Below are positions 29,079 to 32,028 of a stretch of DNA of 48,502 bases, in pieces. Below the pieces are notes generated by a model. That model saw only the letters and a list, made by a program, of their open reading frames with translations, had not been told where the DNA came from and did no database searches. The position numbers and the translations under genes are program-made. The stretch comes from Escherichia phage Lambda: the sequence record NC_001416.1; one strand, written 5' to 3'. The stretch's first letter is position 1; each line of letters begins with the position of its first letter.

Positions 29079-29373
29079 CGCAAAGTCTCCGCAATTACAC
29101 GCAAGAAAAAACCGCCATCAGGCGGCTTGGTGTTCTTTCAGTTCTTCAATTCGAATATTGGTTACGTCTGCATGTGCTATCTGCGCCCATATCATCCAGT
29201 GGTCGTAGCAGTCGTTGATGTTCTCCGCTTCGATAACTCTGTTGAATGGCTCTCCATTCCATTCTCCTGTGACTCGGAAGTGCATTTATCATCTCCATAA
29301 AACAAAACCCGCCGTAGCGAGTTCAGATAAAATAAATCCCCGCGAGTGCGAGGATTGTTATGTAATATTGGGT

Positions 29374-29655
29374 TTAATCATCTATATGTTTTGTACAGAG
29401 AGGGCAAGTATCGTTTCCACCGTACTCGTGATAATAATTTTGCACGGTATCAGTCATTTCTCGCACATTGCAGAATGGGGATTTGTCTTCATTAGACTTA
29501 TAAACCTTCATGGAATATTTGTATGCCGACTCTATATCTATACCTTCATCTACATAAACACCTTCGTGATGTCTGCATGGAGACAAGACACCGGATCTGC
29601 ACAACATTGATAACGCCCAATCTTTTTGCTCAGACTCTAACTCATTGATACTCAT
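29374..29655 (-). CDS. ea8.5: Ea8.5 (Cys/His-rich small protein)
   Basis: ORF track 29374..29655 (93 aa). Confidence 0.88.
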   Translation of the reverse strand: MSINELESEQKDWALSMLCRSGVLSPCRHHEGVYVDEGIDIESAYKYSMKVYKSNEDKSPFCNVREMTDTVQNYYHEYGGNDTCPLCTKHIDD

Positions 29656-29846
29656 TTATAAACTCCTTGCAATGTATGTCGTTTCAGCTAAACGGTATCA
29701 GCAATGTTTATGTAAAGAAACAGTAAGATAATACTCAACCCGATGTTTGAGTACGGTCATCATCTGACACTACAGACTCTGGCATCGCTGTGAAGACGAC
29801 GCGAAATTCAGCATTTTCACAAGCGTTATCTTTTACAAAACCGATC

Positions 29847-30395
29847 TCACTCTCCTTTGATGCGAATGCCAGCGTCAGACATCATATGCAGATACTCACC
29901 TGCATCCTGAACCCATTGACCTCCAACCCCGTAATAGCGATGCGTAATGATGTCGATAGTTACTAACGGGTCTTGTTCGATTAACTGCCGCAGAAACTCT
30001 TCCAGGTCACCAGTGCAGTGCTTGATAACAGGAGTCTTCCCAGGATGGCGAACAACAAGAAACTGGTTTCCGTCTTCACGGACTTCGTTGCTTTCCAGTT
30101 TAGCAATACGCTTACTCCCATCCGAGATAACACCTTCGTAATACTCACGCTGCTCGTTGAGTTTTGATTTTGCTGTTTCAAGCTCAACACGCAGTTTCCC
30201 TACTGTTAGCGCAATATCCTCGTTCTCCTGGTCGCGGCGTTTGATGTATTGCTGGTTTCTTTCCCGTTCATCCAGCAGTTCCAGCACAATCGATGGTGTT
30301 ACCAATTCATGGAAAAGGTCTGCGTCAAATCCCCAGTCGTCATGCATTGCCTGCTCTGCCGCTTCACGCAGTGCCTGAGAGTTAATTTCGCTCAC
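29847..30395 (-). CDS. ea22: Ea22
   Basis: ORF track 29847..30395 (182 aa); charged, coiled-coil-like central region. Confidence 0.88.
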   Translation of the reverse strand: MSEINSQALREAAEQAMHDDWGFDADLFHELVTPSIVLELLDERERNQQYIKRRDQENEDIALTVGKLRVELETAKSKLNEQREYYEGVISDGSKRIAKLESNEVREDGNQFLVVRHPGKTPVIKHCTGDLEEFLRQLIEQDPLVTIDIITHRYYGVGGQWVQDAGEYLHMMSDAGIRIKGE

Positions 30396-30613
30396 TTCGA
30401 ACCTCTCTGTTTACTGATAAGTTCCAGATCCTCCTGGCAACTTGCACAAGTCCGACAACCCTGAACGACCAGGCGTCTTCGTTCATCTATCGGATCGCCA
30501 CACTCACAACAATGAGTGGCAGATATAGCCTGGTGGTTCAGGCGGCGCATTTTTATTGCTGTGTTGCGCTGTAATTCTTCTATTTCTGATGCTGAATCAA
30601 TGATGTCTGCCAT
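30392..30613 (-). CDS. orf73: Orf73, TraR/DksA-family C4 zinc-finger protein
   Basis: ORF track 30392..30613 (73 aa); CxxC-x17-CxxC motif (CECGD...CRTCASC). Confidence 0.8.
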   Translation of the reverse strand: MADIIDSASEIEELQRNTAIKMRRLNHQAISATHCCECGDPIDERRRLVVQGCRTCASCQEDLELISKQRGSK

Positions 30614-30838
30614 CTTTCATTAATCCCTGAACTGTTGGTTAATACGCTTGAGGGTGAATGCGAATAATAAAAAAGGAGCCTGTAGCTCCCTGATGATTTT
30701 GCTTTTCATGTTCATCGTTCCTTAAAGACGCCGTTTAACATGCCGATTGCCAGGCTTAAATGAGTCGGTGTGAATCCCATCAGCGTTACCGTTTCGCGGT
30801 GCTTCTTCAGTACGCTACGGCAAATGTCATCGACGTTT

Positions 30839-31024
30839 TTATCCGGAAACTGCTGTCTGGCTTTTTTTGATTTCAGAATTAGCCTGACGGGCAATGCTGC
30901 GAAGGGCGTTTTCCTGCTGAGGTGTCATTGAACAAGTCCCATGTCGGCAAGCATAAGCACACAGAATATGAAGCCCGCTGCCAGAAAAATGCATTCCGTG
31001 GTTGTCATACCTGGTTTCTCTCAT
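30839..31024 (-). CDS. orf61: Orf61 hypothetical protein
   Basis: ORF track 30839..31024 (61 aa). Confidence 0.7.
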   Translation of the reverse strand: MRETRYDNHGMHFSGSGLHILCAYACRHGTCSMTPQQENALRSIARQANSEIKKSQTAVSG

Positions 31025-31196
31025 CTGCTTCTGCTTTCGCCACCATCATTTCCAGCTTTTGTGAAAGGGATGCGGCTAACGTATGAAATTCTTCGTCTGT
31101 TTCTACTGGTATTGGCACAAACCTGATTCCAATTTGAGCAAGGCTATGTGCCATCTCGATACTCGTTCTTAACTCAACAGAAGATGCTTTGTGCAT
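31005..31196 (-). CDS. orf63: Orf63 hypothetical protein
   Basis: ORF track 31005..31196 (63 aa). Confidence 0.7.
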   Translation of the reverse strand: MHKASSVELRTSIEMAHSLAQIGIRFVPIPVETDEEFHTLAASLSQKLEMMVAKAEADERNQV

Positions 31197-31351
31197 ACAG
31201 CCCCTCGTTTATTATTTATCTCCTCAGCCAGCCGCTGTGCTTTCAGTGGATTTCGGATAACAGAAAGGCCGGGAAATACCCAGCCTCGCTTTGTAACGGA
31301 GTAGACGAAAGTGATTGCGCCTACCCGGATATTATCGTGAGGATGCGTCAT
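31169..31351 (-). CDS. orf60a: Orf60a hypothetical protein
   Basis: ORF track 31169..31357; start taken at 31351. Confidence 0.7.
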
Positions 31352-32028
31352 CGCCATTGCTCCCCAAATACAAAACCAATTTCAGCCAGTGCCTCGTCCA
31401 TTTTTTCGATGAACTCCGGCACGATCTCGTCAAAACTCGCCATGTACTTTTCATCCCGCTCAATCACGACATAATGCAGGCCTTCACGCTTCATACGCGG
31501 GTCATAGTTGGCAAAGTACCAGGCATTTTTTCGCGTCACCCACATGCTGTACTGCACCTGGGCCATGTAAGCTGACTTTATGGCCTCGAAACCACCGAGC
31601 CGGAACTTCATGAAATCCCGGGAGGTAAACGGGCATTTCAGTTCAAGGCCGTTGCCGTCACTGCATAAACCATCGGGAGAGCAGGCGGTACGCATACTTT
31701 CGTCGCGATAGATGATCGGGGATTCAGTAACATTCACGCCGGAAGTGAATTCAAACAGGGTTCTGGCGTCGTTCTCGTACTGTTTTCCCCAGGCCAGTGC
31801 TTTAGCGTTAACTTCCGGAGCCACACCGGTGCAAACCTCAGCAAGCAGGGTGTGGAAGTAGGACATTTTCATGTCAGGCCACTTCTTTCCGGAGCGGGGT
31901 TTTGCTATCACGTTGTGAACTTCTGAAGCGGTGATGACGCCGAGCCGTAATTTGTGCCACGCATCATCCCCCTGTTCGACAGCTCTCACATCGATCCCGG
32001 TACGCTGCAGGATAATGTCCGGTGTCAT
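31348..32028 (-). CDS. exo: Lambda exonuclease (Red alpha)
   Basis: ORF track 31348..32028 (226 aa). Confidence 0.96.

Follow-up and report, generated by a model that had tools for sequence, protein, structure and literature searches.

We found that orf73, a minus-strand gene of phage lambda at 30392..30613, encodes a TraR-branch member of the DksA/TraR family that very probably acts in the secondary channel of RNA polymerase and raises phage yield (we put the probability at about 0.93). The window, that is, the whole stretch of DNA analysed, is the 48,502-nucleotide lambda record NC_001416.1, and the 1.6 kb around orf73 matches Lambdavirus lambda and close derivatives at 100% identity. Competition with DksA, inhibition of rrnB P1 and rpsT P2, dependence on D3 and D6, and the effects on growth and yield are taken from published work, while family membership, conservation of the functional residues and the fold come from the present analysis. 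The residue-level contacts with RNA polymerase and the allosteric mechanism are inferred by homology to the TraR-RNA polymerase structures.

This reading of Orf73 is already known and has reached textbook level, and annotation pipelines already name the TraR/DksA family. An earlier note on this DNA had proposed a zinc-finger regulator of RNA polymerase; its observation is confirmed and its interpretation supported. Orf73 is thus not a new discovery and serves as a positive control, in which sequence-only reading recovered the right family, mechanism and phenotype. No other phage member of the TraR family is as well characterised as lambda Orf73. Its example shows that temperate phages have a way, independent of ppGpp, of imitating what the stringent response does to RNA polymerase. 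Ribosome synthesis is stopped in this way with none of the collateral metabolic effects that ppGpp brings.

Family membership and predicted fold of Orf73

The gene starts at an ATG (30613..30611) and stops at a TGA (30394..30392), giving a product of 73 aa, MADIIDSASEIEELQRNTAIKMRRLNHQAISATHCCECGDPIDERRRLVVQGCRTCASCQEDLELISKQRGSK. The exact coordinates and length given by the earlier note were borne out, and the minus strand, which that note did not mention, can be added. In record OM418626 the same coordinates are annotated as “DksA/TraR C4-type zinc finger domain-containing protein”. The codons of the zinc finger occupy 30437..30511 (minus strand) and encode C35-C-E-C38-x17-C56-A-S-C59, a motif of 25 residues. 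The CxxC-x17-CxxC pattern that had been claimed is therefore present, whereas the 24-residue string quoted for it begins at C36, drops C35 and reads CxC. The string is one letter short through a transcription slip, so the claim about the motif itself stands. A six-frame translation of the whole window contains the pattern a single time, as compared to a mean of 0.07 in 100 shuffles. Orf73 has six cysteines in total, four of them ligands and the other two, C36 (codon 30506..30508, minus) and C53 (30455..30457, minus), lying within the same globular domain.

The Pfam zf-dskA_traR check, run on the earlier call of a TraR/DksA-like zinc finger, gave a match above the curated cut-off. PF01258 scored 34.8 bits (gathering cut-off 24.9; E 1.6e-8), with residues 33-64 aligned to positions 4-35 of a 36-position profile. 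PHROG 54, “DksA-like zinc-finger protein”, matches Orf73 end to end (E 7.8e-25). The NCBIfam model TIGR02419 (C4_traR_proteo), described as “phage/conjugal plasmid C4 zinc finger protein, TraR family”, also aligns end to end, with residues 3-64 on profile positions 1-64 and E 1.1e-14. Its curated cut-off is just missed (54.7 versus 59.7 bits), and Orf73 falls far below that of the F-TraR equivalog NF010268 (28.3 versus 108), which indicates that Orf73, although homologous to F TraR, has diverged from it and is not its orthologue. The best PDB sequence matches are the TraR-RNA polymerase entries 5W1S and 6N57 (E ~2e-5), followed by YbiI.

Pairwise alignment with TraR gives 34% identity over Orf73 residues 1-60 (62 alignment columns), and the functional residues coincide. 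D3, D6 and A8 of the N-terminal D3-I-I-D6-S-A8 segment (codons 30590..30607, minus) fall on TraR D3, D6 and A8; C35, C38, C56 and C59 fall on TraR C37, C40, C58 and C61; and R46/R47 (30473..30478, minus) fall on R48/R49. In an alignment of 37 homologues reaching down to 57% identity, D6, A8, C35, R46, C56, E64 and K68 are invariant, the last two lying in the predicted C-terminal helix, and D3, C38, R47 and C59 are at least 90% conserved. The x17 spacing is common to 117 of the 118 family representatives with a C4 motif, and 104 of those 117 carry the RR pair. The C4 motif is a predicted zinc-binding site. The DxxDxA motif sits on a single N-terminal helix without a coiled coil, a feature of the TraR subfamily.

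Relatives of Orf73 are widespread. A profile built from Orf73 and 36 relatives collected 2417 cluster representatives at E <= 0.001, and tblastn found relatives in 570 phage records, with hosts that include Escherichia, Klebsiella, Salmonella, Vibrio, Pseudomonas, Yersinia and Mannheimia. Of 5426 complete E. coli genomes, 3316 carry DNA resembling orf73, mostly at 90-99% identity and in up to 6 copies per genome, and RefSeq names the genes there “TraR/DksA family transcriptional regulator”. TraR-like polymerase regulators are thus near-ubiquitous prophage cargo in this species. As a side observation, MW057783.1, a 48,361 bp record entitled “Campylobacter phage CJLB-4” with Campylobacter jejuni as host, matches lambda at 100% identity over the 1.6 kb queried and looks like lambda contamination or mislabelling of a public record.

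Might orf73 be open merely by chance, or encode a zinc finger that binds DNA in a generic way and has nothing to do with the control of RNA polymerase? The gene is unannotated in some lambda records (e.g., OR974322 and HK630), and several C4 zinc-finger proteins filed as TraR/DksA do not work like DksA (PMC9239242). The homology with TraR, however, is full-length and takes in the DxxDxA motif outside the zinc finger, the Pfam match is above its curated cut-off, and the breadth of the family in clusters and E. coli genomes is as given above. As translation and activity of Orf73 have been demonstrated experimentally (PMC9239242), both forms of this idea are already refuted, and we give them practically no chance.

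An AlphaFold2 model built on the 37-sequence alignment reached a mean pLDDT of 80; a single-sequence model (pLDDT 56) was discarded. The model shows a helix at residues 3-28, which fits the short helical N-terminus described by the earlier note, a zinc knuckle with a short helix at 44-49, and a C-terminal helix at 57-71 (codons 30401..30445, minus). Block pLDDT is 84-87 over residues 51-70 and drops to 63 at residues 71-73. Foldseek against the PDB ranked TraR first and second, as 6n57_M (E 4.2e-3, probability 1.00, TMq 0.53) and 5w1s_M, followed by YbiI at rank 3, DksA2 and DksA. To our knowledge, no structure of Orf73 with RNA polymerase exists. On polymerase-bound TraR the model has an rmsd of ~10 A because the helix angles differ, so that the match is one of topology and not a tight superposition. 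The TraR resemblance had been modelled before, and free Orf73 models likewise differed from polymerase-bound TraR in their helix angles (PMC8614690, 2021).

Action of Orf73 on RNA polymerase and host physiology

The inference of an RNA polymerase regulator has been published for Orf73 itself by Gopalkrishnan, Ross, Akbari, Li, Haycocks, Grainger, Court and Gourse (mBio 2022; PMC9239242), including in vitro transcription, growth and phage-yield experiments. When supplied from a plasmid, Orf73 allows a dksA deletion strain to grow on minimal medium, thereby complementing the deletion. The purified protein inhibits rrnB P1 without ppGpp, with an IC50 of ~50 nM, the same as TraR; rpsT P2 is also inhibited and the RNA-1 promoter is unaffected. 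In an Fe2+ cleavage assay, Orf73 displaces labelled DksA at a TraR-like concentration (half-maximal at 0.65-1 uM), which places it at the same secondary-channel site, and the D3N and D6N variants inhibit much more weakly (PMC9239242).

The effects in cells follow the same direction. Induction of pL in a defective prophage carrying orf73 reduced precursor rRNA to 29% and rpsT mRNA to 45%, with slower growth after ~1 h and a plating efficiency lowered by ~10^4-fold (PMC9239242). After mitomycin C treatment, lysogens with wild-type orf73 yielded 3- to 4-fold more phage than those with D3A/D6A or an in-frame deletion (PMC9239242). Ribosome profiling, as cited in PMC9239242, has orf73 expressed from pL in the early lytic phase. 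The authors proposed that Orf73 shifts host transcription away from ribosome synthesis without a stringent response (PMC9239242), and a 2024 review repeats the proposal as accepted knowledge (PMC11323111).

Contacts are known for TraR in the complex: R48 contacts the rim helix, R49 contacts the beta' Si3 insertion, and the C-terminal helix touches the beta Si1 insertion (PMC9239242), while the DxxDxA motif reaches the active-site region of RNA polymerase. Orf73 is made early in lytic growth once pL is derepressed. By analogy with TraR, we propose that its N-terminal helix, with D3xxD6xA8 at the tip, enters the secondary channel of the host enzyme. Docking of the C4 zinc-finger domain and C-terminal helix would involve the channel rim together with Si3 and Si1, the insertions of the proteobacterial enzyme. 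Orf73 without ppGpp would then destabilise open complexes at kinetically sensitive promoters, such as those for rRNA and ribosomal proteins. This would account for the slowed host growth and, with polymerase and resources freed for the phage, for the ~3- to 4-fold higher yield.

A different account holds that the key function of Orf73 is to keep host DNA replication from initiating (“bin”), whether it does so directly or by way of dnaA transcription. It draws on Sergueev et al. 2002, where, as cited in PMC9239242, orf73, ea22, ea8.5 and orf55 are implicated in replication-initiation arrest, and on the inhibition of dnaA P2 and P1 in vitro at high Orf73 (IC50 ~420 nM and 1.7 uM, respectively; PMC9239242). 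The dnaA effect, however, is only one-half to one-third of the rRNA effect even when Orf73 is overexpressed, and the authors considered any replication effect probably indirect (PMC9239242). We judge this account to be very unlikely as the key function and retain inhibition of ribosomal promoters as the preferred one.

The earlier note had further stated that proteins of this family mimic the effects of DksA and ppGpp. For Orf73 this holds for inhibition and fails for activation, as thrABC, argI and rpoH P3 are activated little or not at all, whereas TraR and the other four homologues activate thrABC and argI by ~2- to 4-fold (PMC9239242). Only the inhibitory half of the mimicry is shown for Orf73. 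The same authors suggested that the extra cysteines (TraR positions 38 and 55) might perturb folding and so cause the missing activation. We surveyed the 118 best cluster representatives carrying the C4 motif and found that, at the position of C53, 72 have Cys and 40 have Val; Cys at the position of C36 is rare, occurring in 6 of the 118, and in 41 of 96 members of a closer subfamily. Since Cys at the C53 position is common in the family, the survey argues against the extra-cysteine explanation. The alternation of Cys and Val suggests that this position may be a small buried hydrophobic site and not a ligand or redox site. The idea that C53 marks a redox or alternative-ligand clade was rejected as unlikely given the same counts. 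If any extra cysteine matters, C36 may be the better candidate, judging from its distribution.

Reports differ on what the phage gains from Orf73. An infection study (Zdrojewska 2019, as summarised in PMC8614690) reports an effect on phage yield opposite to that in PMC9239242. In that infection study, fewer host cells survived and lysogenisation was less efficient when orf73 was deleted, so that the gene was placed in the pro-lysogenic class. The main role of Orf73 might accordingly be a bias of the lysis-lysogeny decision towards lysogeny, exerted via RNA polymerase at pRE, pI, paQ, pRM or host stress promoters. Slowed host growth is a state that favours lysogeny in lambda. Such slowing is what Orf73 brings about, and the only lambda promoters assayed in vitro were pL, pR and pR' (PMC9239242). 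These three respond hardly at all, with pL raised just 1.4-fold and pR and pR' not increased (PMC9239242), a near-zero effect that counts against the lysogeny bias. Against it too is the lower yield after induction of the D3A/D6A and in-frame deletion alleles, which should not be polar on ea22 (PMC9239242). The authors acknowledge the conflict over yield and ascribe it to mutant construction and to infection versus induction (PMC9239242). We regard lysogeny bias as rather unlikely to be the main role, and the two roles are not mutually exclusive. A secondary-channel regulator that raises phage yield remains our preferred reading of Orf73.

Expression context of orf73 in the exo-xis block

The gene lies in a conserved minus-strand block between exo and xis that is transcribed from pL and contains, in this order, orf60a, orf63, orf61, orf73 and ea22. 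The overlap of orf73 with the start of ea22, noted earlier, was found at the base level: the ea22 GTG (30395..30393) and the orf73 TGA share the four bases GTGA (30392..30395, minus), a layout typical of translational coupling. The ea22 Shine-Dalgarno element GAGG (30401..30405, minus) is located within the 3' end of orf73. Upstream of orf73, 10 nt before the ATG, there is a weak Shine-Dalgarno-like AGGGA (30624..30628, minus), and OM418626 annotates the orf73 ribosome-binding site at 30624..30626.

Between orf61 and orf73 is a gap of 225 nt (30614..30838). It contains a terminator-like hairpin with a T-run at 30663..30691 (minus), 60 nt upstream of the orf73 ATG, with an 8 bp stem and a 3 nt loop (AGGGAGCT-ACA-GGCTCCTT, then TTTTATTATT) and a folding energy of -14 kcal/mol (z -2.1). 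Its position agrees with t2-lambda, a terminator predicted between orf61 and orf73 by Bloch et al. 2014 (PMC4195576), who also found mRNA of orf73, ea22 and ea8.5 below that of genes upstream of the predicted terminator. Another terminator-like hairpin, at 31265..31287 (minus; 9 bp stem with 6 GC pairs), follows shortly after exo, within the coding region of orf60a, and may be a known pL-operon terminator.

The orf73-upstream hairpin is enclosed by a 31-aa ORF, MNMKSKIIRELQAPFLLFAFTLKRINQQFRD, at 30620..30715 (minus), which stops 6 nt before the orf73 ATG and had no match in a Pfam search. PMC8614690 describes a translated ORF of 31 aa, “orf2313”, found by ribosome profiling in the exo-xis block; judging from length and location only, the two may be the same. 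Translation of the 31-aa ORF could affect termination or be coupled to translation of orf73, which is speculation. A separate 60-aa TTG-start ORF at 30712..30894 (minus), in a frame different from that of orf61, runs across the 3' part of orf61 and terminates at the start of the 31-aa ORF; it has no Pfam match and is unlikely to be a gene.

In 177 phage records the gap is conserved at 95% identity or more, a divergence too small for coding and regulatory (non-coding) constraint to be distinguished, and it is without an annotated gene in several of the records listed. The Orf73 protein itself ranges from ~86% to 100% identity among the lambdoid and Stx phages listed. A sigma-70 promoter scan gave no minus-strand promoter upstream of orf73, with fewer sites than expected by chance; the p1 promoter of Bloch et al. 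(predicted with BPROM; PMC4195576) was not recovered by this simple scan. No known RNA family was detected in an Rfam scan of 29300..31500.

In a further reading, Orf73 might be a natural inhibition-only variant of TraR that is pro-lytic on induction and pro-lysogenic on infection, acting at pRE, pI, paQ and pRM, with expression of orf73 perhaps gated by the conserved hairpin within the translated 31-aa ORF. As a whole, this combination is decidedly unlikely.

Comparison with TraR, DksA and other phage homologues

TraR of the E. coli F plasmid (PDB 5W1S, 6N57/6N58 and 6PSQ-6PSV) is among the closest known systems. Like Orf73, it has 73 aa and a C4 zinc globule that lies between an N-terminal and a C-terminal helix, with D3xxD6xA8, four cysteines with the x17 spacing and an RR pair all in alignment. 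Both proteins inhibit rrnB P1 with an IC50 of ~50 nM independently of ppGpp, compete with DksA and complement a dksA deletion. In contrast, identity between them is only ~34%, TraR activates thrABC and argI, and Orf73 has the two extra cysteines C36 and C53. TraR is made from a conjugation operon and activates pY, ptraM and ptraJ, whereas Orf73 is made from a phage early operon and does not activate the promoters of its own element.

DksA (151 aa) shares with Orf73 the PF01258 domain, the secondary-channel site, an acidic DxxDxA tip and the target promoters that are inhibited. The tip of DksA is carried on a long coiled coil and ppGpp is needed for full activity, whereas Orf73, a protein of half that size, acts by itself and has just one helix at its N-terminus. 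E. coli YbiI (PDB 2KGO) resembles Orf73 in its zinc finger, both by sequence (E 1e-4) and by fold (rank 3); it is chromosomal and longer, and the match is confined to residues 29-65, without the N-terminal DxxDxA helix.

Among phage proteins, P2 Orf82, VP882 Orf61, VHML Orf8 and X. bovienii Gp34 are like Orf73 in binding RNA polymerase, in inhibiting rrnB P1 and in complementing a dksA deletion, and all five are of the PHROG 54 type, which is widely distributed among proteobacterial phages. None of the other four inhibits E. coli RNA polymerase as potently as Orf73, and Orf73 is the only one that fails to activate thrABC and argI.
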